Shown: piece after piece, positions 29,327-63,083 of the stretch | How the letters are laid out: every line of letters begins with the position of its first letter | How positions within the stretch are numbered: the first letter of the stretch is position 1 | Assembly (NCBI GenBank): GCA_038065475.1 | Contig: JBBTQY010000003.1 | Coordinates: 14,464-78,463 of the forward strand | Reading direction: 5' to 3' | Origin: Patescibacteria group bacterium | Lineage (GTDB): Bacteria; Patescibacteriota; Minisyncoccia; Ryanbacterales; GWA2-47-10b | Length of the DNA: 64,000 nucleotides | Position numbers and translations under genes: made by a program | The notes under the pieces: generated by a model | What the model saw: only the letters and a program-made list of their open reading frames with translations | Database searches by the model: none | What the model was told of the DNA's origin: nothing

Positions 29327-31300
29327 CTAGTAGTGCCCCTCTCGTTCGAGGTTCGCAGCCGTACCGTAGAGGTAGGCGCCCTTCTTGTTGCCATACCACA
29401 CGACGTGCTGCATCCAGTCTTCCCACGTCGACCATTGTTCCGTGGTGCGATCGATATGGTGCCACACCATACACTCTTTAAGATCCACCGCTTCGGATCC
29501 TTCGAGCATACGGCGCGCCGAATGGTAGACCCCCCACACATTGTAACGAAGTGAGAGATCGACATCTTTGGTCTGAAAAGGAAGTTTGACAAGACTCTGG
29601 TTGAGCAGAACCGCATCCGCAAGAAGTAGTGCGGGAATCGTAACGGAACGCTCCGAGAAGAAACGAGCGAGAAGAGAGCTAGCTTCTTGGTAAAACGCGG
29701 AGAGCTTACCCTCACGCGCGAGCTTGATGAAGACGTACTCGTCCGGCGGCCAGTAGACATTGAGCCACTCTGGTGCCGGACATTGCTCGATATCGCCTCC
29801 TTGGATACGCCGTGCCTTCTCTTGGAAAAAGGCGCGGATCTCCGAGAGAACCGGATATCCTGCGAGCGATCCTTCGGTGAACACCTCGATGAGCTCCCGA
29901 TACGAGACACCCGTCGTCTTTTGAAGAACCACGAGTGGTATCTGAAAAAGCTTGTCGAAGTGAAGAAGTGCGGTCATCCAGGAAAAGACACGCGCCCTGA
30001 CCCAGTCTTCGCGTGGCATCGCGTTAGTTGCGACGACCAAGTCTTCGTACTCACGAATCTGATCCGGCGTCGTATCGATGACGCCATGGTAGATGACAGC
30101 TTCGACTGATACCGACTGAATGCCGAATTGTGCCTGATAGTCAGGATTACCCATCTCAGCATTTGGCAAGATGGAACAGTTGCTGAACTGGATCCGATTG
30201 TGCTGACCCGATTCGATCGCCTCCGATACTCCGGCGACGAACGTTTCGTAGGTCTCTCCCGGCAGCGCGAGAATCAAATCGCTATACGTCTCGATGCCCG
30301 CGGCGGTAAACCGCTTTTGCAGGCGACGAAAATCTTCGAGCGAAATATTCCGACGCTTGATGGATTCGAGCGTGACCGGATCAAGAGATTGGAACGCGAG
30401 CGTCACCCCCTTGTTGAGGCCGGCGTCTGCGAGAATCTTCTGCGCCTGAAAGATGCGCTCTTCTGCGTTCTTCGCGTTCTGTACGGAGAGCGCGTGAGGA
30501 TACCCTAGGCGCGCCTTCACGCTCGCTGCATACCGTGCGATCTCAACATCCCGAGGGAAAATGCCGAAGTTCGCATCGCAGCAAAACATGAACTCGATAC
30601 GATGGGCAGCGACCCACTCGAGCTCGGCGTAGAGGCGACTTTCATCAAACCTAAACACCTTACTCGCAATCGCAGAACCCCAATCGCAAAATGTGCATGC
30701 GAACGGGCATCCGCGATTTGTCTCCCACAGAAACAACCACTGCTCTTCGGGATGTTCAGCCATAAGTTGGCTAAACACGCCGGAGGTGTAGGGAGACGGA
30801 ATGAGTGAAAGATCGGGAATGCGCGGCATGCGCTCGTTTTGCACGTACCGTCCTTCTTCGTCGATGAAGCTCGTCGAAGGAATGTCGTGCCAATCGCGCA
30901 CGGATGCGCGCTCGAGCACGCGTGTGAACACCTGCTCGCCTTCATTGTGACACGCGACATCCACCCATGGATGCGCGCGCAAGAACAACTCTGACCGATC
31001 GGGTACCTGTGGTCCGCCGAAGACGATGATCACGGCGGGGTTTTGCTCTTTGAGCTGTCGCGCGATCTCGAGCGAGATATTTTGATTCCAGACATAGAGA
31101 CTGAAACCTACGATATCCGCGCTACGAAGCGCTTCGAGGGCATCATCAAGCGCGATGCGCTTGTAGAGCGGTGGGAGAAATTCGTACTCATGAGATGCGG
31201 CGAGGTGCTGTTGGGCATACGCCTGCAATATCCCTACGGAGTACGGAAGATAGTTTTGTCCTGAGAAACTGTTGTTGATCTGTACGAGTCCGACTCTCAT
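29327..31300 (-). CDS. Cobalamin(B12)-binding radical SAM enzyme (class B radical SAM) with a C-terminal extension of about 250 aa
   Basis: N-terminal B12-binding region, then the radical SAM cluster motif CPFACTFC (CxxxCxxC). Total length 657 aa. SD AAAGGAGG lies 9 nt upstream of the ATG. GC-rich. Confidence 0.85.
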   Translation of the reverse strand: MRVGLVQINNSFSGQNYLPYSVGILQAYAQQHLAASHEYEFLPPLYKRIALDDALEALRSADIVGFSLYVWNQNISLEIARQLKEQNPAVIIVFGGPQVPDRSELFLRAHPWVDVACHNEGEQVFTRVLERASVRDWHDIPSTSFIDEEGRYVQNERMPRIPDLSLIPSPYTSGVFSQLMAEHPEEQWLFLWETNRGCPFACTFCDWGSAIASKVFRFDESRLYAELEWVAAHRIEFMFCCDANFGIFPRDVEIARYAASVKARLGYPHALSVQNAKNAEERIFQAQKILADAGLNKGVTLAFQSLDPVTLESIKRRNISLEDFRRLQKRFTAAGIETYSDLILALPGETYETFVAGVSEAIESGQHNRIQFSNCSILPNAEMGNPDYQAQFGIQSVSVEAVIYHGVIDTTPDQIREYEDLVVATNAMPREDWVRARVFSWMTALLHFDKLFQIPLVVLQKTTGVSYRELIEVFTEGSLAGYPVLSEIRAFFQEKARRIQGGDIEQCPAPEWLNVYWPPDEYVFIKLAREGKLSAFYQEASSLLARFFSERSVTIPALLLADAVLLNQSLVKLPFQTKDVDLSLRYNVWGVYHSARRMLEGSEAVDLKECMVWHHIDRTTEQWSTWEDWMQHVVWYGNKKGAYLYGTAANLEREGHY

Positions 31301-31342
31301 CAGTACTTTCCTCCTTTCATTTTTTTAAGGTTCGTACTGGTG

Positions 31343-31371
31343 TTCCTGTGTCAATAAACCAATAAAATAGT
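31343..31371 (-). promoter_or_regulatory. Putative sigma70-like promoter TTGACA-N17-TTTATT for the radical-SAM gene
   Basis: Consensus -35 with a 17-nt spacer, about 35 nt upstream of the SD and ATG. It lies between an upstream terminator and the gene. Confidence 0.4.
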
Positions 31372-31390
31372 ATTTTGTCAATATTCCTCA

Positions 31391-31424
31391 AAAAGAAAAG
31401 CAGGGGCCCCGTGAGGAGTCCCTG
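31391..31424 (-). terminator. Putative intrinsic terminator after the methyltransferase gene
   Basis: GC-rich hairpin CAGGG-(GGGGCCCC-containing loop)-CCCTG followed by CTTTTCTTTTT on the minus strand. Confidence 0.35.
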
Positions 31425-31448
31425 ATGTTTGATGGCGTGCCTTTTTTT

Positions 31449-32393
31449 TCATAAAGGCCGCCACACGATGTAGGAGTACGCGTCGTGATAGAGATTGCCG
31501 AAATGCACCCGTTGCACGCGCTCAAGCTCGATACGGCCTTGGCCTTCGAGCTCGCGAAGCCGCGTCAAGTATCCCGACAAATAGTTGCGTTTGCGAGAAA
31601 ACTGCAGCGCGAGCGCATCAGTCACCTGCGTCGGATCGTAAAGCTCCTCGATCCCGTCAACATGCACGAAGCACACGCATGGGTGTTCGAGTACCGACTG
31701 GATGAAGGGTTCGAATGCTCCACCGACTTGCTCGAGTGCATGAAATGCCAAGAGCGCATCGCTCGGCGCATGATCCATACGCACTGATGGAGCGAAAAGA
31801 TCGAAGACATCGCCCCGCACATTCCACCCACATCCTGTACGCATGACCTCGATTATGTCACGCGACGCTTCCGCCCAATCGTACCCGAAGAGTTTCTTTT
31901 CGGGATACATCACGGCGAGCGTCGCGAGATTCATTCCAGAACCGCATCCGAACTCGTGTATTGCCGAGGCGTTGGCGAAATACTTTTCGAACAGCCATCG
32001 GCAAAACACCTGACGCACGTTGAGCTCGAAGAGATTGCTCGCCGGCTCAATGTACTCGCCGAATAGCCGTACAGGCGCCCCAGGCCGATCATAGTACTTC
32101 GGCACGAGAGCACGAATGTTGTAGCCACTCGCCTTGAAGTCGACCAGATTCTCTGACCATCCTTCTTGCCAGCGAGGCTGTCTTCCTCGCCCCGCGGGCG
32201 CGAGACTTGGTGTATCTTCGCCGAGCCTTTCCTGGATCATCGCTATGATTTCAGATTGTCGCGATGCAGAAAGATGAGAGAATCGAAAGTCGGTCAAAAA
32301 AATCATCGCCTGCACTGCGGGCGAGAAATCGTCAACCGTCACCCCGAATAACCGGGCGAAATCACCTATCCTGAGCGTATCCATCTTGCCCAT
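31449..32393 (-). CDS. Class I SAM-dependent methyltransferase (sugar methyltransferase candidate) with an N-terminal extension of about 120 aa
   Basis: Motif I IHEFGCGSGMNL. The start ATG is in a TGATG overlap with the upstream reductase stop, so the two are translationally coupled. GC-rich. Confidence 0.7.
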   Translation of the reverse strand: MGKMDTLRIGDFARLFGVTVDDFSPAVQAMIFLTDFRFSHLSASRQSEIIAMIQERLGEDTPSLAPAGRGRQPRWQEGWSENLVDFKASGYNIRALVPKYYDRPGAPVRLFGEYIEPASNLFELNVRQVFCRWLFEKYFANASAIHEFGCGSGMNLATLAVMYPEKKLFGYDWAEASRDIIEVMRTGCGWNVRGDVFDLFAPSVRMDHAPSDALLAFHALEQVGGAFEPFIQSVLEHPCVCFVHVDGIEELYDPTQVTDALALQFSRKRNYLSGYLTRLRELEGQGRIELERVQRVHFGNLYHDAYSYIVWRPL

Positions 32394-33343
32394 CAGTGAG
32401 CACCTTGCCTTTCTCGATACCACGCGATTGTTTCTCGGAGACCGTCTCGCAAAGAAACCGCGGGACGAAATCCGATCGACTCTGCGCGTGTCGTATCCAT
32501 CACTCGTATCTGATCGCCTTCCGACTGTTCACCATCCCACACAATCGCGGGATCTTCGCCAGCCTCTTGGCAGATGATCGCGAGTAGTTCATAAATTGAA
32601 ACGCCCGTACCGCTACCGAGATTGACCGGATCGACAATACCTCGCTCGGCGACAAGCATCATCCCACGCGCAACATCGCGCGCGTGTACGAAGTCTCGTA
32701 TCTCGGTACCGTCGCCCCTCACCCGAACTGGGAATTCGCGGCTGACAACTTTGCGTACAAATGAAGGAACGACCATCGCCGCGTCTGACTCGAAGTCGTC
32801 GTGCGGGCCGTAGGTATTGGCTGGACGTACGATTGAAATAGCGTCCCAACCGTACTCAATGCGGTATGCCTCCGCCTGAAGCTCCCCCGCGCGCTTTGCG
32901 CACGCAGGAAAACGATCATTGCGTGGAAGTGGCGTGCGCCAGACATCGTCTTCACAGAAGATTGGAGCTGTATCGTACACGCCCAGAGAACTCGTGAAGA
33001 GAAATCCTTCGACGTCGCTCCGGCGCGCCGCTTCCATGAGATTCGTGTTGAACATGAGCTGCGGCACGAGCAGGTGCGCGGGCCGCGCCTTCACGGCTGC
33101 GGGTGAACCTTTCACACACAGCAGATTGAAAACGTACTCCATGCTGCTGCATGCCTGCATGCAGTTACCGAAATCCGTCAGATCGAGCCTTCGAAACTCG
33201 GCATCGGGATGTGCCAACGTCGCATCACCAAGTGACACGATGCGGACATACGCCCCCGCACGAATCAGAAGCTCGACGAGCGGGATACCGATAAGGCCGG
33301 TGCCGCCTGCGACAAGCACGTGCTTGCCTTTGAAATCAAACAT
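32393..33343 (-). CDS. NAD(P)-dependent epimerase/reductase of the GDP-L-fucose synthase (Fcl/WcaG, extended SDR) family
   Basis: Rossmann HVLVAGGTGLIG. PANTYGPHDDFESDAAMVVPSFVRK resembles the Fcl NLYGPHDNF...SHVIPALIRK region. Confidence 0.75.
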   Translation of the reverse strand: MFDFKGKHVLVAGGTGLIGIPLVELLIRAGAYVRIVSLGDATLAHPDAEFRRLDLTDFGNCMQACSSMEYVFNLLCVKGSPAAVKARPAHLLVPQLMFNTNLMEAARRSDVEGFLFTSSLGVYDTAPIFCEDDVWRTPLPRNDRFPACAKRAGELQAEAYRIEYGWDAISIVRPANTYGPHDDFESDAAMVVPSFVRKVVSREFPVRVRGDGTEIRDFVHARDVARGMMLVAERGIVDPVNLGSGTGVSIYELLAIICQEAGEDPAIVWDGEQSEGDQIRVMDTTRAESIGFRPAVSLRDGLRETIAWYRERQGAH

Positions 33344-34312
33344 TCACAACTCCTCTGGGCAAACCTGCTTGTACCAAGCAAGCGTTTGCTCGATACCTTG
33401 ATCGAGAGTGACGCGCGGACTCCACCCGTAGATTTCCCGCGCTTTAGTGATGTCGAAACATACCTTGGTCGGTATGGTGGGTTTTGAACGATCGTACGTC
33501 ACACCAAGAGTCTTCTCTGAAGCCTTGATGATACGCATGACCAGTTCCCCGATCGACACCGCGGTTCCTGCGGCGACATTAACAACGTCGTGCGGAGGAA
33601 GTGACCCTTGCCGAACATGATCGATGACGCTCGAAATGAACGCACACAGATCGCTCACGTAGAGCAGGTCTCGTTCTGGAGATCCGTCTCCCCACACGGA
33701 AAGATCTTCTCCATCCCGTGCGGCCATGATCTTGGCGACTGTCGCGCCAAAAACATGGGAATGTTCGAGATCGAACTTGTCGTGCGGTCCGTACACGTTT
33801 GATGGACGAACTACCGTGTAGCGTGTCCGACCGAGACGTGAATAGAACTCGGCGAGCTTTTCCGCGCAGATCTTCATCCAGCCAACACCGAAGTAGTTGG
33901 GGAAAAAACCATCACGCAGATCTACATCGCCTTCTGCAAACACATGAGCGGCAGTTCGCTGCGGGTATACGACACCCGAGCTCAGAAAGATCACGTGTCC
34001 GACACCCGCGTTGTGCGCCGCTTCAAACAGCAACGTATTGATGATGATGTTGCCTGCGACGTGCATTTCAGGATGATTGATGATGTCGCTCGAACCAGAA
34101 CTTTTTGCCGCGGCATGCACAATGACGTCCGTACCGCGAACAGCGGTGGCAACCTGCTGCCTATCAGTCAGATCAACCCGACGCGTGCCCGAGAGCACAC
34201 GACTGTTTGTCAGACCGACAACATCGATGTCATCACGCCCCTGCAATGCCTCGTGTATGTTGCGCCCGATGAAGCCGGACGCACCCGTAACAAGCACCCG
34301 TAACTTCTCCAT
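33344..34312 (-). CDS. Second Fcl-like NAD(P)-dependent sugar epimerase/reductase (extended SDR)
   Basis: VLVTGASGFIG and RPSNVYGPHDKFDLEHSHVFGATVAKI. Tandem paralog of the downstream gene. SD AAGGAGG lies 7 nt upstream. Confidence 0.75.
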   Translation of the reverse strand: MEKLRVLVTGASGFIGRNIHEALQGRDDIDVVGLTNSRVLSGTRRVDLTDRQQVATAVRGTDVIVHAAAKSSGSSDIINHPEMHVAGNIIINTLLFEAAHNAGVGHVIFLSSGVVYPQRTAAHVFAEGDVDLRDGFFPNYFGVGWMKICAEKLAEFYSRLGRTRYTVVRPSNVYGPHDKFDLEHSHVFGATVAKIMAARDGEDLSVWGDGSPERDLLYVSDLCAFISSVIDHVRQGSLPPHDVVNVAAGTAVSIGELVMRIIKASEKTLGVTYDRSKPTIPTKVCFDITKAREIYGWSPRVTLDQGIEQTLAWYKQVCPEEL

Positions 34313-34344
34313 AAAGCGCCTCCTTTGTCAACGAGCTCATCTTG

Positions 34345-34373
34345 CTTATAGCAAGAAATGAGCCTCCAAACAA
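34345..34373 (-). promoter_or_regulatory. Putative extended -10 promoter (TTGTTT-N17-TGCTATAAG) for the Fcl-like gene pair
   Basis: Read from sequence. The same TTGCTATAAGCA motif recurs upstream of the gene at 39210. Confidence 0.35.
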
Positions 34374-34376
34374 GCA

Positions 34377-35438
34377 CTAAAAGGGGCCTTTGAATTTACG
34401 TTCGTAGCTATAAAAATTTTCTTTCGTAAGATCGGTGGGTGTCAGTTTAAGCTGACGCTCTACCTCTCTAATGATAGTCTCAGCTCCCGGATAGAAAACC
34501 ATCTCGAGTGGGCGCGTGCACGGGCATGGAGTGTCGGCAAAATGAATGCGTCCAACTGGCGCGCGCAATACGCCAAAACATTTTTCCGAGACACGCGCAG
34601 CTATCTCAGCACCAAACCCACAAAATCCCCAATCATAGTCAGCGACAATGCAACGTTTTGTTTTTTGTACGGAACGTACGATTGTTTTTTCATCAAGTGG
34701 CACGAGTGTGCGCGGATCGACAATCTCTATCTCAACGCCACGACGCGCAAGGACTTCTGCCGCTCGGAGCGCTTCGACGTTCATCCACGATGTCGCAACA
34801 ACGGTGATATCTTTGCCACGACGCAGCACATGCGCCTTACCAAACGGCATTGGCTCCTGGCGCGCAGGAACTTTATCAATCGCGTCATAAAGCCACCGAT
34901 GTTCAATAATCAATACTGGATTATCATCACGGATTGCCGTGATGAGTAAACCCTTTGCATCCTCGGGTGTCGTTGGCATCACCACCTTCAACCCTGGAAT
35001 ATGCGCGAAGACAGATTGCATGCTTTTATTGTGCTGGTATGACTGGCCCCATCCCCTACCGATAACCGCGCGAATCACCATCGGCACTTTCATCTGTCCG
35101 CCTGATCCGTAGTGCCAGCTTGAAACCATATTTGAGAGTTGATTCATCGCGAGCAATAAAAAATCGATGCGCATATGTACGTTGATGGGTCGCAACCCCG
35201 CGAGGGCAGATCCGAGACCAAACCCGACGAGCGCCTCCTCACACAGAGGCGTACTAAATGATCGCTTTGCGCCAAACTTTTCAGCCAAACCTGCGGTCGT
35301 ACCAAAAATACCTTTGTGATCGGCAATATCAATACCATAGACAAAAACATTTTTATCTCTCTTCATCTCCTGTACCGTCGCCTCGCAAATCGCGTCCCGA
35401 TAACTCAGCATTTTTGACTGAATATTTTTTTTATCCAT
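34377..35438 (-). CDS. Thiamine-diphosphate-dependent E1 component beta subunit-like (transketolase-like pyrimidine-binding and C-terminal domains)
   Basis: KNVFVYGIDIAD...GIFGTTAGLAEKFG is the E1-beta N-terminal signature. Start ATG lies 2 nt after the alpha-subunit stop. Confidence 0.8.
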   Translation of the reverse strand: MDKKNIQSKMLSYRDAICEATVQEMKRDKNVFVYGIDIADHKGIFGTTAGLAEKFGAKRSFSTPLCEEALVGFGLGSALAGLRPINVHMRIDFLLLAMNQLSNMVSSWHYGSGGQMKVPMVIRAVIGRGWGQSYQHNKSMQSVFAHIPGLKVVMPTTPEDAKGLLITAIRDDNPVLIIEHRWLYDAIDKVPARQEPMPFGKAHVLRRGKDITVVATSWMNVEALRAAEVLARRGVEIEIVDPRTLVPLDEKTIVRSVQKTKRCIVADYDWGFCGFGAEIAARVSEKCFGVLRAPVGRIHFADTPCPCTRPLEMVFYPGAETIIREVERQLKLTPTDLTKENFYSYERKFKGPF

Positions 35439-36393
35439 AGAAAACATCTTGATATAATTCAGCATTGGCGGGAAACGGGGCGCGCTGTGCTTTACGGACA
35501 GCGCCAGCAATAGCCTGCTCAATGTCTTTCTCGATACCTAGGATTTTTGATTCTGAAAGGCCTTGTCGAATCAAACGTGCGCGCTGTAATTTTACCGGAT
35601 CGTGTTTTTCCCATACATCAAATTCCTTGCGCCCCCGATACCCAACATCAAAATCAGTATTGATCCCCACATGCTCCAAGTATCGATAATACTGCGTACT
35701 TAAAAAAACGGGCCTTTTATTTTTCTGTAATAATCGCATCGCTTTTTGTGTCGCTGCATATATCTTTTCTACATCCGTACTTTTTTCCTCAATCACCGTG
35801 CATTCAAATTTGGAAACAATAGCATCGAGTGAGCGGTACCCATGACGTCGTTCTTTTGGATTGTGTACCGCCAAACCATTGTCTTCGTAGACGAAAAGTG
35901 CCGGGATGCCGAGCGCGGCGCTCATATTTAAAGACTCCCAAAAAACACCTTCATCGACAGCACCGTCACCGAAAAAAGTCGCGGCGATAGTTTTTTTCTT
36001 CTTATATATATTGGCAAACGCCGCACCTACCGCAAGTGGTAGAGTACTCGCGACAATAGCGGAAGCTCCGAAAAAACCTGCGGATGGCGCAGAAAGATGC
36101 ATAGAACCCGCCTTTCCTTTCGCATTACCGGTACGCTTTCCGTACAGTTCCGCAAAAAAAGTATCTGCCTCACCGGTGCGCGCGAGATATACCGCGTGAC
36201 TTCTATATGAAGAAAATACTTGAGCATCCTTCCCAAGCGCATGACACACCCCGACCGAAATCGCCTCACCCCCCATAGACATATGCATGGGCGTCTTCAT
36301 GTCGTCCTCAAGATAGTGCGCAATAATAGCCTGTTCAGAAGCCCTGACAAGATAGAGTGCTTTATAGAGTTTAATACTAAGTTCTGATTTCAT
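35431..36393 (-). CDS. Thiamine-diphosphate-dependent E1 component alpha subunit-like (pyruvate/acetoin dehydrogenase E1-alpha family)
   Basis: TPP-binding FFGDGAVDEGVFWESLNMSA plus the YRSHAV...G region. Start at the internal ATG (MKSELSIKLY). Confidence 0.8.
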   Translation of the reverse strand: MKSELSIKLYKALYLVRASEQAIIAHYLEDDMKTPMHMSMGGEAISVGVCHALGKDAQVFSSYRSHAVYLARTGEADTFFAELYGKRTGNAKGKAGSMHLSAPSAGFFGASAIVASTLPLAVGAAFANIYKKKKTIAATFFGDGAVDEGVFWESLNMSAALGIPALFVYEDNGLAVHNPKERRHGYRSLDAIVSKFECTVIEEKSTDVEKIYAATQKAMRLLQKNKRPVFLSTQYYRYLEHVGINTDFDVGYRGRKEFDVWEKHDPVKLQRARLIRQGLSESKILGIEKDIEQAIAGAVRKAQRAPFPANAELYQDVFYG

Positions 36394-36511
36394 AGGTAAA
36401 CGATATCTGTAATCATAGACACTCTGAAGAAAACGTCTACCCCTGAAGCTTGCCAATGCCTTCTTTTCGGTATATCGTGCGACAAACGCATCTTAACATA
36501 CGAGGTCACTC

Positions 36512-37090
36512 ATGCGCATAAAACCGCTCGTTAAAGTTGGAAGGCCAGTCGAACTTACCAAACGCTTCTTCGGAAAAGCGATGGTGAGACAATCCTATCG
36601 ACGCCGCAACAATGGCACGATAGAAGACTACTACTTTTTCGGTCACAGCTCTCAGTGGGCATCCATCGTATTCCCACTCACGCCTACAGACGAAGTGGTC
36701 GCCATCCGGCAGTTCAGGCCTGCGGTCGGCAAAGCGATTCTCGAATTGCCTGGGGGAACCCTGGAGGACGAGGCGACGCCGGAGATAGTGGCGCGCCAAG
36801 AACTCACCGAGGAAACGGGCTACGTAGCGCGAGAACTTCTAGCTCTCACACCGCAACCGATCTTCATTGAGCCCGCAAACACGGCGCTCTCCTACCACCT
36901 CTATCTCGCGACTGGATGTCTACCGACTGGTGAACAAAGCCTTTCGCCTACCGAAGATATAGAGGTCGTGCTCATGCCGCTTCGCACATGGATACAGAAG
37001 ATTCGACGTGGCCATATCCAAGACGGCCGAAGTATCGTGGCGACCTTTCTCGCACTACCCCACCTCAAGGCGTGGGCTGGGCTCGTATGA
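36512..37090 (+). CDS. Nudix hydrolase (nucleoside-diphosphate-sugar/ADP-ribose pyrophosphatase-like)
   Basis: Nudix box GGTLEDEATPEIVARQELTEETGY. Confidence 0.75.
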   Translation: MRIKPLVKVGRPVELTKRFFGKAMVRQSYRRRNNGTIEDYYFFGHSSQWASIVFPLTPTDEVVAIRQFRPAVGKAILELPGGTLEDEATPEIVARQELTEETGYVARELLALTPQPIFIEPANTALSYHLYLATGCLPTGEQSLSPTEDIEVVLMPLRTWIQKIRRGHIQDGRSIVATFLALPHLKAWAGLV

Positions 37091-37102
37091 ATACGAGCCC
37101 TT

Positions 37103-37597
37103 TTATATAGTTTTTTTAATTTTTTCTATAATGCTCGTGGTTGAAATATTTTCAAATTCGGGTGGACACCAACGATCAAGCATGACAAACTGTATCTTAT
37201 GTTTTTTAGCAATCTCTTCCCGATAGGATAGATCGAAGGCATCCTTATTGACGACATACACGTCCGGATGGAGTCCCGCGAACAACGGCTCAAGATAAGC
37301 GTTCAAATTATCTGCAGGCACCGGACCATCGAATAAGACATAATCAACGGGCTTGAGCGAATCAACCATCTTGATACGCACCTCTTCATTCAGTATCGGG
37401 CGGCCGCTCTTATATTTTTTAATATTTTCATCACATCCAACCACGACGACTAAAATATCGCCGTACTTTTTGCACTCATCAAAAAAAAGCGCGTGACCTG
37501 CATGAGTCAAATCAAACACGCCCGAACAAAAAATAATCTTTTTGTTCTTGTGTGTCTCGCGAATATTTGGTAAGTCAGTATATGTGATGCGCGCCAT
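37103..37597 (-). CDS. Cytidylyltransferase-family nucleotidyltransferase (TagD glycerol-3-phosphate cytidylyltransferase / HldE domain II-like)
   Basis: IIFCSGVFDLTHAGHALFFDECKKYGDILVVVVGCDENI (HxGH motif) and a C-terminal ISTTSIIEKIKK that resembles the TagD C-terminus. Start at the internal ATG (MARITYTDL). Confidence 0.75.
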   Translation of the reverse strand: MARITYTDLPNIRETHKNKKIIFCSGVFDLTHAGHALFFDECKKYGDILVVVVGCDENIKKYKSGRPILNEEVRIKMVDSLKPVDYVLFDGPVPADNLNAYLEPLFAGLHPDVYVVNKDAFDLSYREEIAKKHKIQFVMLDRWCPPEFENISTTSIIEKIKKTI

Positions 37598-37684
37598 CGT
37601 GACTGTTATGGTACTGAAAAATATTGCTAACGACAACTTGATAAAAAAATGGGGGGGTGACGCCACCCCCCCTTCCTGCGTACC

Positions 37685-54524: not shown

Positions 54525-55597
54525 TACACGAGTGGTAGACGTTTTACATCAAATTTTTTACCGAGATGAGCTTCTTGCTCGACAATCTTCAGGTCGCTCT
54601 CAGCCATGATCTTCGCGAGTTCTTTAAATGTCACCTTGGGCTGCCAGTCGAGTACCGTGCGAGCCTTAGTCGGATCACCCAAAAGCAAATCAACCTCTGC
54701 GGGGCGAAAGTGCACCGGATCAATCTCGATAACTGTCTTACCAGTCTTGCGATCAACACCGCGCTCTTCGACTCCTTCTCCTTCCCAGACAATATCCATG
54801 TCATAGTGCTTACCGACTTCTTCAGCAAACTCGCGCACGGTATGTGTCTCGCCCGTTGCCAATACAAAATCATCGGGTTTATCGTGCTGTAAAATTTTCC
54901 AAATACCTTCTACATAATCTTTGGAGTAGCCCCAATCACGTTTTGCGTTTAAATTACCAAGATGAAGTACTGGCTGCAAACCAAGCTTCACGCGCGCGAG
55001 TCCCGTAGTAATTTTACGCGTGACAAAATTGATACCACGACGAGGCGACTCATGGTTGAATAAAATACCATTTGACGCAAAAAGACCGTAGCTCTCACGA
55101 TAAATGCGAGTAGAGTAAAAGGCGAATACTTTTGAAAGGCCGTAGGGCGACTGCGGATTGAAAGGTGTTGTCTCTTTTTGTGGAGTTTCTAATACCTTAC
55201 CAAACATTTCCGATGAACTTGCCTGATAGTATTTGGTAGGAAGTTTGAGATCACGAATTGCCTCCAGAATACGTAGCGGGCCCACGCCCGTTACGTTTGC
55301 CGTGTATTCGGGCACATCAAAACTAATACGCACATGCGACTGCGCGCCAAGATTATAAATCTCATCGGGCTGAATCTTTGAGATAATACGAGCAATATTT
55401 GAAGAATCACCCAAGTCCGCATACGCGGTGATGAAATGCGGATACTTGGGATTATCGTACAAATGATCAATGCGATAGGTATTTGGCGTACTAGCGCGCC
55501 GCTGGAGCCCGTAGACCTGATAGCCCTTCTCAAGCAAAAATTCGGCCAAATAGGAGCCGTCCTGACCGGTAACACCTGTAATGAGGGCTTTTTTCAT
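54524..55597 (-). CDS. gmd: GDP-mannose 4,6-dehydratase
   Basis: [36 protein letters not shown] is the canonical Gmd N-terminus. Length is 357 aa. Confidence 0.9.
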
Positions 55598-55618
55598 AAC
55601 TTGATTACTATACCATTA

Positions 55619-56668
55619 TTAATGATTTTGTGAAGGGTTCTCGACCACCTTTTGAATCTGAGAGACAGCCTCCTCCAAAGAATAACGATCGAGCACAATC
55701 TTTCGGCCATGATCTCCTAAACGAGCGCGCAACTCAGTATCACCTACTAGTCGTTCAAGTGCACTCACCCATTCAGTATCAGTCAACGCAAGAAAACCAC
55801 TTTTCCCATCATCAACGACATACTTCGCCTCACCAATACGCGAAGCGACGACGGGAAGTGCTGAAGCCATGTACTCAATAGCTTTAAGAGCGCACTTCGC
55901 ACGATTAAAATCAGAATCGACAAGCGGCATGACGCCGATATCAAAATGATACTTACCTATCAATGTGCTTGGTGTTTGCGCGTCTTTCCAATCAGCTTCA
56001 TCTATATAGACAACTTCATACCGAACATCCTTAAAGCAATCTTTGAGAGGTTGATAATTCTCTGAGCCAGCGATGACAAGGCGAAACGCTGCATTTCTTT
56101 CCGCGAGTTTATCGAGGGCGGGTTTGAGCACTGTAAAGTTTCCTTGCCGAAAATGTGCCTTCCCCTGCCCTATCCAACCAACCGTGATTGGAGGGGCAAC
56201 GCTCTTTGGCTTCTGGTACATACGTACATCAATACTTGTTGGTACCAATACAACCTGCTGCGCCTTCATACTTCGAGCATAATCAAAAATCTCATGTGAA
56301 CCCGCAAAAACTATATCAGCCATACGCATCAGTGCATGCGTCTTACGTGGCGAATGGATCCACTCAGCGTCATCGAGGTCATAGATAATTTGTTTGCCGT
56401 ATAATATTTTTGCAAGCCACAGCATAAAAGCGACGTCCCACGGAAAAAGAGACTTATGAACAAAAAGAATCTTAATATCTCGAGCACACATACGGCGCCA
56501 TAAGCTCCGTACCATATGTACTCGCGCACGCGAAATATCAGTAAATGCATACGCGATACTATGAATTACCTCGGCGTCGGGAGCTATGCTATCTCGCACC
56601 TGCCATACCCGGAGTCGCGAAGAGGCAGTATCGCGATCTCCTTTCGTTAAGAAAAGGATGGAGTTCAT
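55619..56668 (-). CDS. Glycosyltransferase family 4 (GT-B, group 1)
   Basis: C-terminal FRLVIAGSENYQ...DIGVMPLVDSDFNRAKCALKAIEYMASALPVVAS...VDDGKSGFL shows GT4 topology. Confidence 0.75.
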   Translation of the reverse strand: MNSILFLTKGDRDTASSRLRVWQVRDSIAPDAEVIHSIAYAFTDISRARVHMVRSLWRRMCARDIKILFVHKSLFPWDVAFMLWLAKILYGKQIIYDLDDAEWIHSPRKTHALMRMADIVFAGSHEIFDYARSMKAQQVVLVPTSIDVRMYQKPKSVAPPITVGWIGQGKAHFRQGNFTVLKPALDKLAERNAAFRLVIAGSENYQPLKDCFKDVRYEVVYIDEADWKDAQTPSTLIGKYHFDIGVMPLVDSDFNRAKCALKAIEYMASALPVVASRIGEAKYVVDDGKSGFLALTDTEWVSALERLVGDTELRARLGDHGRKIVLDRYSLEEAVSQIQKVVENPSQNH

Positions 56669-57744
56669 GCGCGCATTACTTTCTCTAAGAGCTCAGAAAT
56701 CTTTTGAGCTCGCGCCTCCCATGTATACTGCAGGGCGGAGGCACGCGCAGCTTTCCCTAATCGAGAGGCTAGCTCCTCATCTTCTACAATACGCAAGACC
56801 GCCTTGGCAAAAAGTTTTCCATCAAGCTTTTGTATAAGAATTCCATTTACTTCATTCTCTATCACTTCATCATTTGCTCCACCAAGCGTAGAGATGATTG
56901 GTTTACCGGCGGCGAGATATTCATATAGTTTAGAAGACACGCTGCCGGGATACACCGTTGAGAGCGGATTCACAAGAATATCGGCAGCACAGAGATACAC
57001 GGGCACCTCTGCAGGCACAATACGCTTAACAATAGTATATCGTCCCTCAAGACCCTCTTTTTTCATTTGTCTGTGTATCGCCTCCTCTTCATTCGCCGTA
57101 GGACCAACAAACACCAAATGAACATTCACACCCCTTAACTCCTGCATCATACTTACCAATACGTCGACTGAATACCACAAAAAACTTCCTGCATACATAA
57201 TGGTCGTCATGCCAGAAGGCACGCCAATACGCAAAAGATCGACGGAAGTATTATATTGCTCGACCGTGATTGCGTTGGTCGGCGCCACTATGTATGGCTG
57301 TCGCACATGATAATACTGCGCAAGCTTCTTTGTTATAAACACAACTCCATTACTTGAACGCACCGCAAAATGCCATAGCGGTAACAAAAATCGCCATTCA
57401 TGACTGCCATGTACCTCGAAAACTATTCTCTTACCTTTTATGAAACGAGCGAAAAGCGCTGGAAATATGAGCCATGGATCTCGAAAATATAAAACATCAT
57501 AATCTGCAGCACGCATAAGGTATAAAAAAGCAGATCGTCGTTTCGGACTTACGTCGAATACCAACGGAGTAGTGATCCCCTTATCAGATAAGATAGATTC
57601 GCGCGTTCGCGGCTCAGCAGCCAACGAGATGACGAGCACTCGCGTGCCTTCTACGCGCGATAAATATTCTGCTGTCTTAAGAATATTGACACTATGCGCT
57701 CGTGAAAGTGATAGTTTCGCCCGAGTAAGAATACGTATGTTCAT
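56665..57744 (-). CDS. Glycosyltransferase family 4 (GT-B, group 1)
   Basis: HLVFVGPTANEE...ADILVNPLSTVYPGSVSSKLYEYLAAGKPIIST...ENEVNGILI is the EX7E region. Confidence 0.8.
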   Translation of the reverse strand: MNIRILTRAKLSLSRAHSVNILKTAEYLSRVEGTRVLVISLAAEPRTRESILSDKGITTPLVFDVSPKRRSAFLYLMRAADYDVLYFRDPWLIFPALFARFIKGKRIVFEVHGSHEWRFLLPLWHFAVRSSNGVVFITKKLAQYYHVRQPYIVAPTNAITVEQYNTSVDLLRIGVPSGMTTIMYAGSFLWYSVDVLVSMMQELRGVNVHLVFVGPTANEEEAIHRQMKKEGLEGRYTIVKRIVPAEVPVYLCAADILVNPLSTVYPGSVSSKLYEYLAAGKPIISTLGGANDEVIENEVNGILIQKLDGKLFAKAVLRIVEDEELASRLGKAARASALQYTWEARAQKISELLEKVMRA

Positions 57745-57749
57745 TAAAT

Positions 57750-59075
57750 TTACAACGCGAGAGCATCCTGCAAGCGGCGCACAATGGCGCCACCGTGAAA
57801 TAATATATCAAGCATAGTAGCGATACCAAGAAGGGCGAGGGCAATTACAACAACTCGCCTGCTTTTTACGTCTTTCTTGTGTGCAATCAAAAAAGCAGCA
57901 GTAATCGCAAGTAAAGGATATAACACAAATCGATAACGGCTCTCAACAATAATGGGTATAACGCTCATCGGCTGCAACACAACTACAGCGCCCAAAAATA
58001 ATATTTTCACCTCACGAAATATGCGAGGTATAAGCATTAGCAAACCCGCTATACCACCTATAAATAGAAGTGCTGTCAAAATACCTGAGGCGACCAAAGT
58101 TAAAAGTCGGTGGATCGGATCGTCAGCAAGATGAATCCAAAAGCCGGTGGGTCGGATCAAGCTGAAATATAGCGCCGCCTTCTTGATTTGTAATACTATA
58201 AATTCTCCGGGTGACTCGAAAAGAAATTTTTTATATTCTCCTCGGGATATACGATCAAGCTCATTCATAGTAACCGTGTTGCGTACATGCTGAATCTCAG
58301 GTGTTTTCTCAAAACCGCCTGCAGCACCTTTATGATTTCCCACCCATAAATCATAACTACCGACGCTCGTGGTCAAAATAAAACGCCCATAGCGCTCAGA
58401 GACGGTATATGACCATGGACCAATAATGCAGATTGTGGCAAGCGCGAGCACAGCAAGGGCTCGCCAATCTCTCCTCCAGCCCAAAAGCAGCAAAACAAAG
58501 CCAAATGCAAGAAGTGCAGTTGGTCGAATCAATATAGCAAAAGGCCATAGCACTGCTGCGAGAATAAGCAGCATGCCTTGCCTGCGATCAAAAAAAGTAA
58601 AGGTTACTAGTAACGCAGCAAGGAAAACAAAAATAAAAAGTGTCTCAGTCAACAATAAACCGCTCACCACAATAAGGTCAGGAGTAAATGCAAACAAAAC
58701 ACTCGCAATCGTAGCTGCCCGCGGCATATCTGGAAACAAACGGCGAACAATGAACCACATGAGTATCACCGATGCACCTCGCAAGAGCGCTTGCAGCACC
58801 CAAACCGTCCATATCTTATGTCCAAAAATCCAATAGACAGCTGCGAGAAAAAATTGATACCCGGGCCCTACCCTAATAAGAGCCCAATCAAGCTCCGGCG
58901 TTAGCACATTACTTGCTTCTTCTATATATCCAAAACCCTGCGCAAGATTCCATCCGATCTTATCGTACGCTGCCGCATCAACACGCGGACGATCATGCCA
59001 ATAAAACGCATACGCCAGAGAGATAAGCGTGGTCGCGGCCGCAAGAACAAGAATATGCCGCGGTATATTTTTCAT
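57750..59075 (-). CDS. ArnT/PMT-like GT-C membrane glycosyltransferase
   Basis: [19 protein letters not shown]...[16 protein letters not shown] is a DxxY...PxY loop. Polytopic. 4-nt overlap with the downstream GT2. Confidence 0.7.
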
Positions 59076-59767
59076 GACCTATCAAAAAGATTGAAATAGA
59101 AGATTGCACCAATCGCCTTAAAGCCGTCACGCCAGGTAATTTTTTTACCTTCACGATAAGTTCGCCCATAGTAGTTAATCGGCACTTCATAGATACGCCA
59201 ACCATTGCGAGCTACACGAGCAACAAGCTCTGGTTCGATGCCAAATCTTTGAGATCTTAGTTTTGGAGCGATGATATCAATAACCTCTTTTTTAAATACC
59301 TTGTATCCTGTCTCCATATCGGAAAGATTAAGGTTCGTAAAAATATTGGAGAGCAATGTGAGCATGGTATTACCAAAGTAATGCCAAAAATAAAATACAC
59401 GCTGGTAATCCCCACGAAAACGAGAACCAAATACCACATCTGCCTTTCCCTCTTGAATCGGCCTTAGGAGCGCAGGGTAATCAGTCGGATCATATTCAAA
59501 ATCAGCATCTTGTATAAGGACAATATCACCCGTCGTCTCCAAAAATCCACGTTTGAGTGCCGCGCCCTTGCCCGCGTTCTTTTCAAGCAAAATGATTTTG
59601 ATATCGCTCATTTCTTTGAGAACGTCGCGCGTGCCATCGGTCGATCCATCATCAACAAGAATAATTTCCTTTTCTATACCGTCGAGCGGTACGGCAAAAA
59701 CGCGCGAGACAACCTCGCGCACCGTCTTTTTTTCATTGTATACCGGAATAACTATCGAGAGTTTCAT
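59072..59767 (-). CDS. GT2 polyprenyl-phosphate sugar synthase (ArnC/Dpm1-like)
   Basis: [20 protein letters not shown]...[17 protein letters not shown]...[11 protein letters not shown] motifs. Confidence 0.85.
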
Positions 59768-59844
59768 GCAACCAAAGAGACTTATATCTTATAACGCTCT
59801 TTATCAGCCTATCGTTTCCTCACTTCTTTCTAGCATAAAAACGC

Positions 59845-60951
59845 TTACTCTGCACCCATCAGCCCTCGCAAAAACAAAACAATACCTTCCGCACGCTTAT
59901 CCCAACTATATCGCTGTACTCGATCCCTTCCCTTTTGCGCGCGGCGAGCGCTCTCTTCGGGATTTGTTAAAACTTTTTTTATAACACGCTCAAATTCTTC
60001 TACACGATAATCTTGAACGAAAAATAATTCTTCGTCTCCTGCAACCTCACGAATTGATGGAAGGTCGGTTGCTACCGTAGGCGTACCTGATGCAAGATAC
60101 TCCATGATTTTAATGGGGGAAAAATATTTTTGCGCGCGCTCGCTATTCTTTTCATACGGTGCAATAAGCACGTCAGCGGCAAACATATACTTATTAATCT
60201 GAAGGACAGAAATAGTGGAAAATCGCCAGAAAAAATCATCTCTCTCTTCTCGCTCTGCACCAAATTCCACAAGTACAGTGCCGGGCAACGTTTTATTAAT
60301 ACGGCCGGATAACTCAGCCAAAAGAGCAGTCCCTTTCCATGCCTGCAGACTGCCCGCGTAAAGAATAATTTTTTTGTCTTCGGGCAAGTTGAGCTCCGCT
60401 CGAACTTCTGCTCGTGTTTTCTCCGGGACCAAAAGTGGATCGAATCCGTTGGGCGCAACTAAAAAACGATTTGCACTAATACCATAAGTGTTTGCGATAG
60501 CTTCTACTTTTGCCTTATTGGTCGAGACAATACCGCGTGCAGAGCGAAACACGCGACTATATATCATGGAAGGCATCTTACCAAGCGAGTGGCATTCAAA
60601 AAAGAAATTGTCTCGAAACCGTGGCGAGAGAAAAGAAAGAAGAAACGCTAGGAGAAGATCGCGAGTATAAAAAATTGTCTCGGGCGGCGCTTCGCGCACG
60701 ATACGGCGAAACGTAAGTGCACGAAAGAAGCTTTGCGGCCAAAGTATACCGAATAATTTTGGTAGCTCTTTTATAGAAAGATCGCCTGTGACGCCATAAC
60801 TCTCCAATACTTTTCTTTTCTTCTCGCCCATGCTTCCTACCCAGAGAGTAGCATCGGCGTGACGCGAAAAGGCCTCCGTCATCTTCATGACCTGGAGGCG
60901 GTTGGCGAGCGTTGAAGGATATGTGAGCGTTGTAAGATACCAGAGTGTCAT
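59845..60951 (-). CDS. Glycosyltransferase family 4 (GT-B, group 1)
   Basis: KKIILYAGSLQAWKG...ADVLIAPYEKNSERAQKYFSPIKIMEYLASGTPTVATD is the EX7E region. Confidence 0.8.
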   Translation of the reverse strand: MTLWYLTTLTYPSTLANRLQVMKMTEAFSRHADATLWVGSMGEKKRKVLESYGVTGDLSIKELPKLFGILWPQSFFRALTFRRIVREAPPETIFYTRDLLLAFLLSFLSPRFRDNFFFECHSLGKMPSMIYSRVFRSARGIVSTNKAKVEAIANTYGISANRFLVAPNGFDPLLVPEKTRAEVRAELNLPEDKKIILYAGSLQAWKGTALLAELSGRINKTLPGTVLVEFGAEREERDDFFWRFSTISVLQINKYMFAADVLIAPYEKNSERAQKYFSPIKIMEYLASGTPTVATDLPSIREVAGDEELFFVQDYRVEEFERVIKKVLTNPEESARRAQKGRDRVQRYSWDKRAEGIVLFLRGLMGAE

Positions 60952-62422: not shown

Positions 62423-62429
62423 AAAATAA

Positions 62430-62470
62430 AAAAATGCCCCCACACCGCGGTGATGTGAGGGCACCCGTCA
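62430..62470 (-). terminator. Putative intrinsic terminator after the high-GC orphan gene
   Basis: Imperfect GC hairpin (TGCCC...GGGCA with an inner CAC/GTG pairing) followed on the minus strand by TTTTTTTATTTTTT. Confidence 0.4.
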
Positions 62471-62510
62471 GAGGCATATCGGGTAAAACCTTTTGTTGTA
62501 TCGCCGGAGA

Positions 62511-63083
62511 CTAGGCTGCGAGCCGCGCCGCAAGATCGTCGCCAAGCCAGTCGCGGTCGAGCCAGAAGTGGTATCCGCGCCACCTGCCGTTGAAGCAGAG
62601 ATAACGGACGTACAGGTGGCCATCCAAGCAGCGGTAGATGGTACCCCAAAAAAAGACGGCCTTCCCCTTCTCCTTCCACTCCTCGGGGATGAGGTGCTGG
62701 TTGGCGAGCAGGTAGTCCAACACGTTCGCATTGAGCACGGGTACCGAGGCGAGCTCGCGGCGGAGCTTGTTGCCCTCGATGACCTTGCCGTTCTGCTGGT
62801 TCGGTGAGAGATGAAGCGAGACCTTTGTGGGGTCCCACTCGAACTGGCCGTACCTCCGATGCTCCTCGACCCTCCATCCGTCGGGGATGAATGGGTTCGC
62901 ATCGCAGTCGATGGTGTGGCGGATGGGCGTCACCTCTCCGTGACCACGAATGATGGAGAGCACCTGTGCGAGGATATCGCCCTCGCACATCTTCTTGATG
63001 TCCGCGTTGGTGTAACCAGCGCGGCGGCACGCGAGTTTGAACTCGTTGGCCTGTCCTACATCGAGCATAAGCTCTGCGCTCAC
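62511..63083 (-). CDS. Hypothetical protein (190 aa), strongly GC-rich, lying between two RtcB-like paralogs
   Basis: GTG start with AAAGGAG 6 nt upstream. ATG alternative at 63068. I recognise no domain. The overlapping 327-aa track ORF is an Arg/Pro-rich alternate-frame artefact. Confidence 0.5.
   Translation of the reverse strand: MSAELMLDVGQANEFKLACRRAGYTNADIKKMCEGDILAQVLSIIRGHGEVTPIRHTIDCDANPFIPDGWRVEEHRRYGQFEWDPTKVSLHLSPNQQNGKVIEGNKLRRELASVPVLNANVLDYLLANQHLIPEEWKEKGKAVFFWGTIYRCLDGHLYVRYLCFNGRWRGYHFWLDRDWLGDDLAARLAA

Follow-up and report, generated by a model that had tools for sequence, protein, structure and literature searches.

The stretch of DNA analysed here (the window) comprises 64,000 nucleotides of contig JBBTQY010000003.1 (positions 14,464 to 78,463) from the assembly GCA_038065475.1 of a Patescibacteria group bacterium. 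It harbours a very large surface glycan locus of low GC content in which sharply delimited GC-rich genes are interspersed, and most of these genes recur, still compositionally raised, at the same positions in relatives from which the window has diverged to near saturation at silent sites. The mosaic may represent an old, inherited patchwork of gene-sized imports and replacements that were spread over time and are mostly old, an explanation to which we give about an even chance. The earlier note on this DNA, made from the sequence alone, had interpreted the same pattern as recent, un-ameliorated acquisition of enzyme cassettes from a high-GC donor at intergenic junctions.

Base composition and codon usage of the GC-rich genes

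The overall GC content of the window is 47.4%. Sliding GC content forms plateaus of 0.52-0.67 at 29.2-34.3, 36.7-37.0, 37.6-39.1, 43.3-44.2, 49.3-51.1 and 62.5-63.1 kb and lies at approximately 0.42-0.48 elsewhere. Based on the stored gene calls of the public contigs, which were corrected where the frame-specific GC content revealed a call on the wrong strand, a GC-rich class of 12 genes (9,645 bp in seven transcription units; GC 0.54-0.64) was distinguished from a low class consisting of the 51 other genes of the window (50,105 bp; GC 0.41-0.50). The GC content at third codon positions (GC3) ranges from 0.588 to 0.851 in the former and from 0.337 to 0.537 in the latter with no overlap at all (Mann-Whitney p = 4e-8). 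Among the GC-rich genes three tiers of GC3 are apparent (0.59-0.64, 0.70-0.73 and 0.79-0.85). Since the GC content at second codon positions (GC2) is nearly equal in both classes, the compositional shift is mainly synonymous.

Synonymous codon usage differs strongly between the classes as well (summed chi-square 845, 41 degrees of freedom), C-ending and G-ending codons both being raised in the GC-rich genes across nearly all amino acids. A strand-specific mutation bias was rejected as the cause because the GC-rich genes show raised C3 and G3 irrespective of their coding strand. The GC-normalised dinucleotide distance between the two classes amounts to 0.140 compared with 0.024 +/- 0.006 in the null distribution from equal-sized samples of the low class. 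With delta* values of 0.07-0.11 among each other and of 0.13-0.20 against the host, the GC-rich blocks are more alike than host-like. GC content, codon usage and oligonucleotide signature thus all set the GC-rich genes apart from the host, which confirms the mosaic of GC-rich modules among low-GC genes described in the earlier note. The five GC-rich blocks listed there were correct, but a sixth unit, the NUDIX hydrolase gene, had been overlooked.

Boundaries of the GC-rich units

All 12 junctions between genes of the low and the GC-rich class are located in intergenic gaps of 12-137 nt, and no class boundary was found among the 17 overlapping or closely coupled same-strand gene pairs (41 junctions in 26.9-64 kb; hypergeometric p = 3.4e-4; strand classification and coupled pairs tallied by us from the gap table). 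The maximum-likelihood change points in GC content fall inside the gap or within 17 nt of it at nine of the 12 junctions. The exclusively intergenic position of the boundaries claimed in the earlier note was therefore borne out, and whole genes or transcription units of foreign composition are supported as the exchanged unit.

A strong intrinsic terminator is situated directly 3' of each of the seven GC-rich units, and these are at the same time the seven best intergenic terminator hairpins of the region 28-64 kb. The change points in GC content take in these hairpins. Since the ordinary host units in 1-28 kb likewise end in terminators, the hairpins appear to mark separate transcription units and nothing exotic. 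Compared with shuffled sequence, promoter-like matches are below expectation in 28-47.9 kb and above it in 47.9-64 kb with no overall enrichment, and neither a clear promoter nor a clear terminator signal was seen at the junction of the genes encoding a short-chain dehydrogenase/reductase (SDR) of 322 residues (SDR322) and the E1 beta subunit. The further claim that each boundary carries its own promoter or terminator is borne out only in part.

Support by independent assemblies

The joining of DNA from two organisms during assembly or binning can be dismissed with near certainty as an explanation of the mosaic. Across 29168-62790, the window matches the Logan assemblies of the runs ERR3858120 and ERR3858121 with 100% identity, which supports all GC boundaries in 29.2-62.8 kb. 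The stored ENA contig (L007) differs from the window in three of 20,996 positions (window 1409-22404), so that the window may stem from one of two nearly identical sister assemblies (180,585 or 177,800 nt). On the NCBI contig of 83.8 kb, which belongs to a metagenome-assembled genome (MAG), the low- and high-GC proteins carry serially numbered accessions, and the same proteins are held by long contigs of 83.8, 177.5, 177.8 and 180.6 kb. Furthermore, the twelve junctions alternate inside coherent operons, and the same mosaic was detected in other organisms and in other projects, among them a JGI contig from a separate project (L017). In favour of a chimera it may be noted that one Logan contig ends inside the block at 62.5-63.1 kb (62790) and near the boundary at 29.3 kb (29168). 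However, homologues of the 190-aa protein encoded in the former block are often located on contigs of approximately 1 kb, so that contig ends are common in this family, possibly as a result of heterogeneity in the variable region.

Conservation of the mosaic in related organisms

The JGI contig L017 aligns to window positions 28218-46212 in one piece (approximately 18 kb) with a nucleotide identity of 89.8%. It holds every GC-rich gene of the region 28-46 kb with GC3 values within 0.04 of those in the window. The divergence at four-fold degenerate sites is patchy (0.05-0.96) and not higher in the GC-rich class: it amounts to 0.05-0.15 for the genes of SDR322, E1 beta, E1 alpha, the cytidylyltransferase and an RmlB-like dehydratase (33344-39210) and reaches 0.96 for wzx (39321-40574), which points to recent recombination within the locus.

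The nucleotide similarity to L017 ends abruptly at position 46212, at the convergent junction of the DUF4956 and MT201 genes. Past this point L017 (positions 1-2996) encodes only distantly related PMT_2-like and GT2-like proteins. The junction is a breakpoint or a variable region of the locus.

A more distant relative, organism B, is represented by two contigs from the same well (L018 and L097) that are 100% identical where they overlap. It shares 85-98% protein identity with a MAG labelled Ca. Saccharibacteria (L013). From the CotH gene at 20.5 kb up to the SMR-like gene at 49.2 kb, organism B keeps the gene order of the window with protein identities of 46-83%. The four-fold sites, with an identity of 0.32 where 0.24-0.25 is expected by chance, have come close to saturation. 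Nevertheless, the orthologues of seven GC-rich genes have GC3 values of 0.39-0.53 in organism B and all exceed the 18 low-class orthologues (0.28-0.37; p = 8e-5). The GC3 values of the orthologues in window and organism B correlate with a Spearman rho of 0.82. Most GC-rich genes were thus presumably in place before the deep split between the two lineages and have been partly ameliorated in organism B. The GNAT acetyltransferase gene is absent in organism B. Since the adjoining promoter of the SDR333 gene is conserved there, the GNAT gene together with its terminator seems to be an insertion.

The right part of the window (44.8-59.8 kb) is syntenic with a further contig from a MAG labelled Ca. 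Saccharibacteria (L015), with up to 87% identity. In L015 the slots of the HD-family phosphohydrolase and the cupin are filled by far more divergent genes of near-native composition (39% identity and GC3 0.45; 49% identity and GC3 0.47), and the neighbouring ORFan, a gene of 201 codons nearly devoid of homologues, is missing.

Absence from close relatives thus applies to the GNAT gene (in organism B) and the ORFan (in L015), whereas L017 has all GC-rich genes of 28-46 kb and organism B seven orthologues. For the blocks at 29.3-39.2 kb a recent, un-ameliorated insertion is contradicted by these data. Sharp edges at gene ends, own terminators, GC3 values of up to 0.85, the two lineage-specific insertions (GNAT, ORFan) and an RmlB-like gene without visible decay at third positions would all be in line with cassettes that entered recently from a high-GC donor. 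But the mosaic is identical in a relative at a four-fold-site divergence of approximately 0.2-0.4 (L017), seven genes have positional orthologues across saturated silent sites, the slots of the HD hydrolase and the cupin are ancestral, two of the families are restricted to the candidate phyla radiation (CPR), and no donor was found for any gene. Taken as a whole, the recent entry of cassettes appears very unlikely, and the insertion of cassettes into the locus is not suitable as a general description, since L015 carries divergent near-native genes in two of the slots and only the GNAT gene and the ORFan represent plain insertions.

Probable source composition and decay of the putatively imported genes

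Among the 80 loci recovered in a metagenome scan with the RmlB-like protein, no GC-rich close relative was present. For the 38 of them that lie outside this lineage and have sufficient flanking sequence, the GC content of the gene at first (GC1), second and third positions follows that of the far flanks (r = 0.93, 0.84 and 0.96), and the difference between gene and far flank stays within +/-0.05. The gene in the window exceeds this baseline by 3.6, 4.1 and 5.1 standard deviations (SD) at positions 1, 2 and 3, and this excess at all three positions implies a source of 0.57-0.66 GC. The orthologue in organism B shows an excess of 6.3 SD in GC1 and 4.0 SD in GC2 but of only 0.9 SD in GC3, i.e. 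its third positions have come near the host composition sooner than its first and second positions, which is the expected fingerprint of an old, decaying import. The genes of the RmlC-type epimerase and of a second SDR of 316 residues (SDR316) agree in part, with a similar excess at positions 1 and 2 in window and organism B; for SDR316, the GC1 values of both exceed the baseline of the family. GHMP kinase and the two E1 subunits (alpha and beta), which served as low-class controls, mostly remain within 2 SD.

Several observations weigh against an origin of the GC-rich genes by old import. No donor genome was found for any of them among 5.8 billion proteins, the GTDB species representatives and the JGI metagenomes, so that the high-GC donor postulated in the earlier note is not substantiated. 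Besides L017 and organism B, the nearest relatives of the RmlB-like protein share at most 74% identity and belong to genomes of all GC levels; in a neighbour-joining tree, which is rough and carries no support values, the window sequence is sister to the copy of organism B and nested among low-GC groundwater sequences. Homologues of the radical SAM enzyme share 94% identity in the lineage of L017, 68% in organism B and at most 63% over many phyla thereafter. In summary, the nearest homologues come from low-GC CPR contigs or have 74% identity or less in genomes of any GC content, and no donor lineage of matching composition emerged. According to a rough neutral estimate, the class-average GC3 offsets of 0.20 in the window and 0.11 in organism B would require an approximately 1.7-fold faster silent change in the latter, and the rate ratio required for the RmlB-like gene alone is far larger; no such difference between the two lineages is apparent in their protein distances to L015. 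The GC3 values of the low-class genes correlate between the two lineages, too (rho = 0.55), which indicates some gene-specific effect without import. The GC3 excess of the HD hydrolase (0.28-0.40 in four diverged lineages) is too large for one old import. Finally, none of the units is marked by an integrase, a transposase, a tRNA or a flanking repeat: no Pfam domain of an integrase or transposase and neither a tRNA nor any Rfam family was detected in the window, leaving no candidate for a tRNA or ncRNA integration site, and the search for repeats, which was confined to the border at 60-64 kb, revealed only a chance-level repeat of 29 nt.

The lack of a donor and the correlation among the ordinary genes would also be compatible with a gene-specific force, such as codon or mRNA selection or GC-biased gene conversion at recombination hot spots, that keeps these genes GC-rich in place without any import. 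It is further in line with such a force that the same genes are raised in the window, L017 and organism B and slightly in L015, and that in two loci of uniform GC content (approximately 50%; L107 and L108) no other gene of the cluster reaches the GC3 of the radical SAM gene. On the other hand, RmlB-like genes normally match their own genome, and the excess at positions 1 and 2, i.e. in the amino acid composition, argues against a purely synonymous force acting in place. The rise of C- and G-ending codons across nearly all amino acids is unlike translational selection. Taking furthermore into account that in L099 the gene of ribosomal protein L25 stays at the background level of GC3 (0.32) while a homologue of the 190-aa protein on this contig reaches 0.745, translational selection was judged unlikely. 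The window itself is devoid of ribosomal protein genes. Effects of biased gene conversion reported in bacteria are far below 0.2-0.4 in GC3. Outside its variable region, a homologue of the 190-aa protein from Moranbacteria (L103) is nearly native in composition (0.38), so that a high GC content is not intrinsic to the family. A gene-specific force thus seems improbable as the cause of the mosaic, and the import of genes from GC-richer sources remains the explanation that we prefer.

HD hydrolase and DGR-type protein as possible cases of repeated exchange

The ORF at 49265-49987, regarded as an orphan in the earlier note, encodes an HD-domain phosphohydrolase as judged from its motifs and profile similarity: the alignment of homologues shows invariant H76 and D77 together with D141/D143/K144/D146, and the profile matches the solved structures 3b57, 2qgs and 3djb (E = 2e-8 to 4e-7). 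Only five homologues were detected among 5.8 billion proteins. The search of the GTDB species representatives with the alignment gave four matches, of which three are to MAGs labelled Ca. Saccharibacteria and the fourth is to an unclassified bacterium. In the window and in two further contigs (L012 and, within the clade of organism B, L013) the GC-rich HD hydrolase gene adjoins the same SMR-like gene, and its context is different in L009. These copies form a subclade with 56-70% identity, which shows the GC3 excess mentioned above in all four low-GC lineages.

The ORF at 62511-63083, likewise taken for an orphan, encodes a member of a family that extends throughout the Patescibacteria and comprises 1,742 proteins, many of which are encoded on contigs of approximately 1 kb. 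Three homologues with 61-67% identity to the window protein (P0185, P0128 and P0136) are accompanied by a variable repeat of 123-125 nt and a template repeat, located at 6441-6565 and 6949-7073 in L103, 844-967 and 1337-1460 in L109, and 6470-6592 and 6918-7040 in L112. The mismatches between template and variable repeat are located at template adenines in 15 of 16, 15 of 15 and 18 of 20 cases, and a reverse transcriptase gene follows in all three loci and bAvd in two of them. Judged by these homologues, the 190-aa protein is predicted to belong to a family of variable proteins of diversity-generating retroelements (DGRs), the members of which carry the variable repeat at the C-terminus. DGRs are reported to be widespread in CPR bacteria (PMC8144416). 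The window gene differs from the DGR loci of its homologues: neither a template repeat for its 3' end nor a reverse transcriptase gene was identified in the 64-kb window or in the 5 kb past its right end. A DGR inside the window was rejected for this reason. The gene is flanked by two full-length paralogues of the RtcB RNA ligase (476 aa, 60992-62422, +; 465 aa, 63221-64000+, +), and the best promoter match of the region is located at 63149-63177 (11 of 12 positions).

Members of the 190-aa family have GC3 values of 0.72-0.85 in four unrelated low-GC CPR contexts. In L109 the DGR-type protein gene is GC-rich, whereas the Avd and reverse transcriptase genes of the same element are low in GC.

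Both families may be taken as an indication of recurrent replacement, in which a GC-rich pool inside the CPR, i.e. higher-GC relatives with the same locus or mobile elements, would overwrite the same slots lineage by lineage via recombination in conserved flanks. The copies in the window would then be fairly recent and those in organism B older, and the shared pattern would reflect shared hot slots and not one ancestral event. This fits the recurrence of the GC-rich HD hydrolase beside the same SMR-like gene in three lineages and elsewhere in L009, with a near-native copy in the same slot of L015, as well as the high GC3 of the DGR-type protein in unrelated contexts. The essentially undecayed GC3 of the RmlB-like gene in the window next to its nearly complete decay in organism B, the lack of a rate asymmetry at the protein level and the patchy silent-site divergence to L017, which suggests frequent recombination, point in the same direction. 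In addition, a MAG of 54.5% GC labelled Saccharibacteria (L014) has related locus genes, and L112 provides an example of a GC-rich pool within CPR. However, the searches listed above did not reveal any GC-rich donor copy that is both closely related and native in composition, the same seven genes would have to be replaced in two lineages by many independent events, and recombination in the flanks should smear the boundaries into the neighbouring genes, whereas most change points are located at gene ends. As an explanation of the whole mosaic we consider recurrent replacement rather unlikely, although it is to be taken seriously as a rival. For the HD hydrolase and the 190-aa protein, in contrast, repeated exchange from such a pool within the CPR is the better explanation, and a classical high-GC phylum can hardly be the source of these two CPR-restricted families.

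In L112 a GC-rich island with a length of 7.6 kb or more (848-8439; GC approximately 0.52-0.55) lies directly beside low-GC genes (8575-9835; GC3 0.31-0.35). The island comprises genes for an N6/N4 DNA methylase, T5orf172 and hypothetical proteins and a complete DGR with the homologue of the 190-aa protein, and has the appearance of a compositionally foreign mobile element.

In a low-GC groundwater contig with a background GC3 of approximately 0.2-0.3 (L009) further GC-rich genes were detected besides the HD hydrolase at 5615-6241, 11131-12048 and 15433-16428, predicted to encode a His_Phos_1 protein (GC3 0.77), a 305-aa protein (0.50) and a PRPP synthase (0.48). Such islands thus seem to be common in these genomes and not confined to glycan loci.

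Proposed history of the locus

In the explanation that we favour, the old, inherited patchwork, the glycan locus would have acted as a conserved scaffold receiving single genes or short coupled sets at different times. The sources would have been of higher GC content, roughly 57-66%, and some imports would have been swapped for resident counterparts and others added, each presumably as a self-contained transcription unit with a terminator at its end. While the data show the mosaic, its sharp edges at gene ends, its inheritance and the position-specific decay in the RmlB-like gene, the import itself, the GC content of the sources and the order of events are inferred. Among the genes for sugar-nucleotide tailoring, those of the radical SAM enzyme, the 314-aa protein, the two SDRs, the NUDIX hydrolase and the dehydratase and epimerase may have been in place before the split from organism B. 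Since then, these genes would have drifted toward the host composition, little in the lineage of the window and much more in that of organism B. The GNAT gene may have been inserted after this split, and the HD hydrolase, the cupin, the ORFan and the DGR-type protein, which have the highest GC3, appear younger. The absence of the GNAT gene from organism B and of the ORFan from L015 as well as the GC3 tiers suggest that the events were staggered in time. As at least two of the younger genes belong to CPR-restricted families, their source was probably other CPR bacteria or their mobile elements.

A more far-reaching scenario, which we regard as a doubtful speculation, is that CPR bacteria share an internal GC-rich mobile pool of DGR-bearing or phage-like elements, such as the L112 island, that repeatedly seeds or overwrites units of promoter, ORF and terminator in slots of the glycan locus, certain CPR-only families (HD hydrolase, DGR protein) staying GC-richer than every genome they live in. 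If this holds true, compositional islands would trace exchange within the radiation or between symbiont and host, and they would be hidden systematically by wrong-strand calls of gene callers trained on low-GC genomes.

Comparison with known systems

Glycan loci of mosaic composition are nothing out of the ordinary; what is unusual here is the host and the persistence of the mosaic. The window resembles the mosaic polysaccharide loci known for O-antigen, capsule and S-layer in combining Wzx, Wzy, glycosyltransferase and sugar-nucleotide genes with genes or sub-operons that deviate from the chromosomal GC content, and in the breakpoint between relatives where the synteny with L017 ends. Atypical genes in classic polysaccharide loci are usually AT-richer than the host. 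Those in the window, in contrast, are GC-richer, reside in a CPR host and are mostly conserved in position across deep divergence instead of being strain-variable.

The Lawrence and Ochman model reportedly describes the amelioration of horizontally acquired genes. The decay observed here is likewise dependent on the codon position, with positions 1 and 2 of the RmlB-like gene in organism B still implying a source of approximately 60% GC, and the lineage of lower GC content has the smaller class-wide offset. In contrast to the model, the lineage of the window is nearly undecayed despite its saturated divergence from organism B, the HD hydrolase is GC-rich in four lineages, and a neutral fit with a single event is only achieved with unequal rates in the two lineages.

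The units of the GNAT gene, the HD hydrolase, the ORFan with the cupin and the 190-aa protein are similar to phage "morons" in being intergenic, terminator-ended and of deviant GC content. However, no prophage genes were identified in the window. IMG/VR contained no relatives of the HD hydrolase (searched with the alignment), the ORFan or the 190-aa protein, and a tblastn search of the HD hydrolase and the 190-aa protein against 50,697 GenBank phage records gave no match. A viral origin was therefore rejected. Small, mostly single-gene units ending in an inverted repeat are also reminiscent of integron cassettes, but the hairpins carry T-tails and share no sequence, and the units lie dispersed between host operons on either strand. 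An integron cassette array was rejected since no integrase domain is encoded and the seven hairpins are unrelated T-tailed terminators.

A patchwork traceable through relatives with saturated silent sites offers a natural test of the rate at which foreign composition is lost in reduced CPR genomes. Two CPR-only families that are far GC-richer than their hosts in several lineages point to an unsampled GC-rich pool in the radiation or to a force resisting decay. Furthermore, GC-rich genes that are misread by gene callers become under-represented in protein databases and look like orphans.

Host, gene content and annotation

The host is an ultra-small member of the Patescibacteria (CPR) from oxic karst groundwater (well H41 of the Hainich observatory, 0.1-um filter fraction; ENA projects PRJEB36505 and PRJEB36523), the data set having been made for a study of Patescibacteria (PMC8672522). 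Exact protein matches assign the window, in reversed orientation, to the ENA contig Hain_H41_01um_R3_67 (177,508 nt), and the NCBI proteins of the organism include MEK7649492-MEK7649545. At 90% identity, the first RtcB clusters with a protein of a Ca. Ryanbacteria MAG, and the syntenic MAGs with 45-87% identity carry the label Ca. Saccharibacteria.

The first 12 kb of the window encode housekeeping functions such as SecA, MurB and a ribosome hibernation factor. They are followed by the glycan supercluster (Table 1), the gene order of which is conserved in organism B and in the MAGs L013 and L015. The joint presence of Bac_transf, Polysacc_synt (Wzx), Wzy_C-TPR, GT2/GT4/PMT_2, DegT and SDR proteins is indicative of a Wzx/Wzy-type surface glycan locus, in agreement with the setting assumed in the earlier note.

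Table 1. Glycan supercluster, GC-rich genes and associated terminators of the window (aa, amino acids; NDP, nucleoside diphosphate)
Feature	Position	Strand	Remarks
Low-GC glycan/glycosylation supercluster (predicted)	12696..60951	both	Bac_transf, Wzy_C-TPR, Wzx, CotH/beta-helix, five PMT_2, many GT2/GT4, methyltransferases, two DegT, E1 alpha/beta, GHMP kinase, NTP-transferase-HAD, VTC + DUF4956
B12-binding radical SAM enzyme, 657 aa	29298..31300	-	GC3 0.64; Pfam; nearest NCBIfam KedN5-type C-methyltransferase, below cut-off
11-pair terminator of the radical SAM gene	29298-29322		change point at 29298
314-aa protein	31449..32393	-	GC3 0.63; no significant family match; SAM-binding-like GxGxG motif
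Two extended-SDR epimerase/reductases, 316 and 322 aa (SDR316, SDR322)	32393..34312	-	GC3 0.59 each; coupled; GDP-fucose-synthase-like, below cut-off
NUDIX hydrolase, 192 aa	36512..37090, unit to 37100	+	GC3 0.60; own terminator 37079-37100
NDP-hexose 4,6-dehydratase-like protein (RmlB-like), 332 aa, and RmlC-type 3,5-epimerase, 176 aa	37651..39210	-	GC3 0.73 and 0.70; coupled pair; terminator 37651-37672
GNAT acetyltransferase, 149 aa	43365..43833	-	GC3 0.63; own ribosome-binding site; terminator 43365-43382
HD-family phosphohydrolase, 240 aa	49265..49987, unit to 50036	+	GC3 0.85; TTG start; 15-pair terminator 50003-50036
ORFan, 201 aa, Cys-rich	50119..50724, unit from 50067	-	GC3 0.69; 13-pair terminator 50067-50096
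Cupin_2 protein, 114 aa	50735..51079	-	GC3 0.79
190-aa protein, DGR variable-protein family (predicted)	62511..63083, unit 62432..63177	-	GC3 0.82; 15-pair terminator 62432-62466

The 314-aa protein, the gene of which is translationally coupled to the adjoining SDR gene, had been termed a methyltransferase in the earlier note, but its only family match, to Methyltransf_25, is faint and below threshold (E = 0.026). The GNAT gene is situated between a divergent GT2 region and the conserved SDR333 promoter. Among the presumed orphans only the gene at 50119-50724 proved to be a true ORFan: its product, which contains the motifs CPLRRCLICG...CERGH, has one weak homologue (36% identity over 118 aa) among 1.84 billion representative proteins. 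The ORFan is translationally coupled to the cupin gene at a distance of 10 nt.

In three of the seven GC-rich units the calls stored at ENA are on the wrong strand or in the wrong frame (49210-49452, +; 49397-49966, -; 50206-50682, +; 62568-62807, +; 62811-63152, +). The NCBI annotation of the MAG contains the proteins of 240, 201 and 190 aa in agreement with the frames used here. A gene caller trained on a low-GC genome apparently misreads GC-rich genes, which consequently look like orphans.

The genes encoding the radical SAM enzyme, the E1 alpha and beta subunits (dependent on thiamine pyrophosphate), SDR, NUDIX hydrolase, GHMP kinase, nucleotidyltransferase-HAD protein, dehydratase and epimerase constitute a widely recurring module (window 26930-39210; L107; L108; L019-L096), and a homologue of E1 alpha is also present in 47 of the 80 RmlB-like loci. 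Judging from its heptose-like activation genes, the product of the module is probably a C-branched or C-methylated NDP-sugar.

A strong hairpin of 14 pairs with a T-tail was detected at 12509-12540 (-), upstream of the MurB gene in the intergenic region between the divergent MurB and Bac_transf genes. It adjoins a promoter match of 11 of 12 positions at 12592-12620 and could be an attenuator or a bidirectional terminator.

Within the glycan locus, a VTC domain protein and a DUF4956 protein are encoded by a coupled gene pair (44812-46211, +), the position of which is kept in organism B, L013, L015 and L017.

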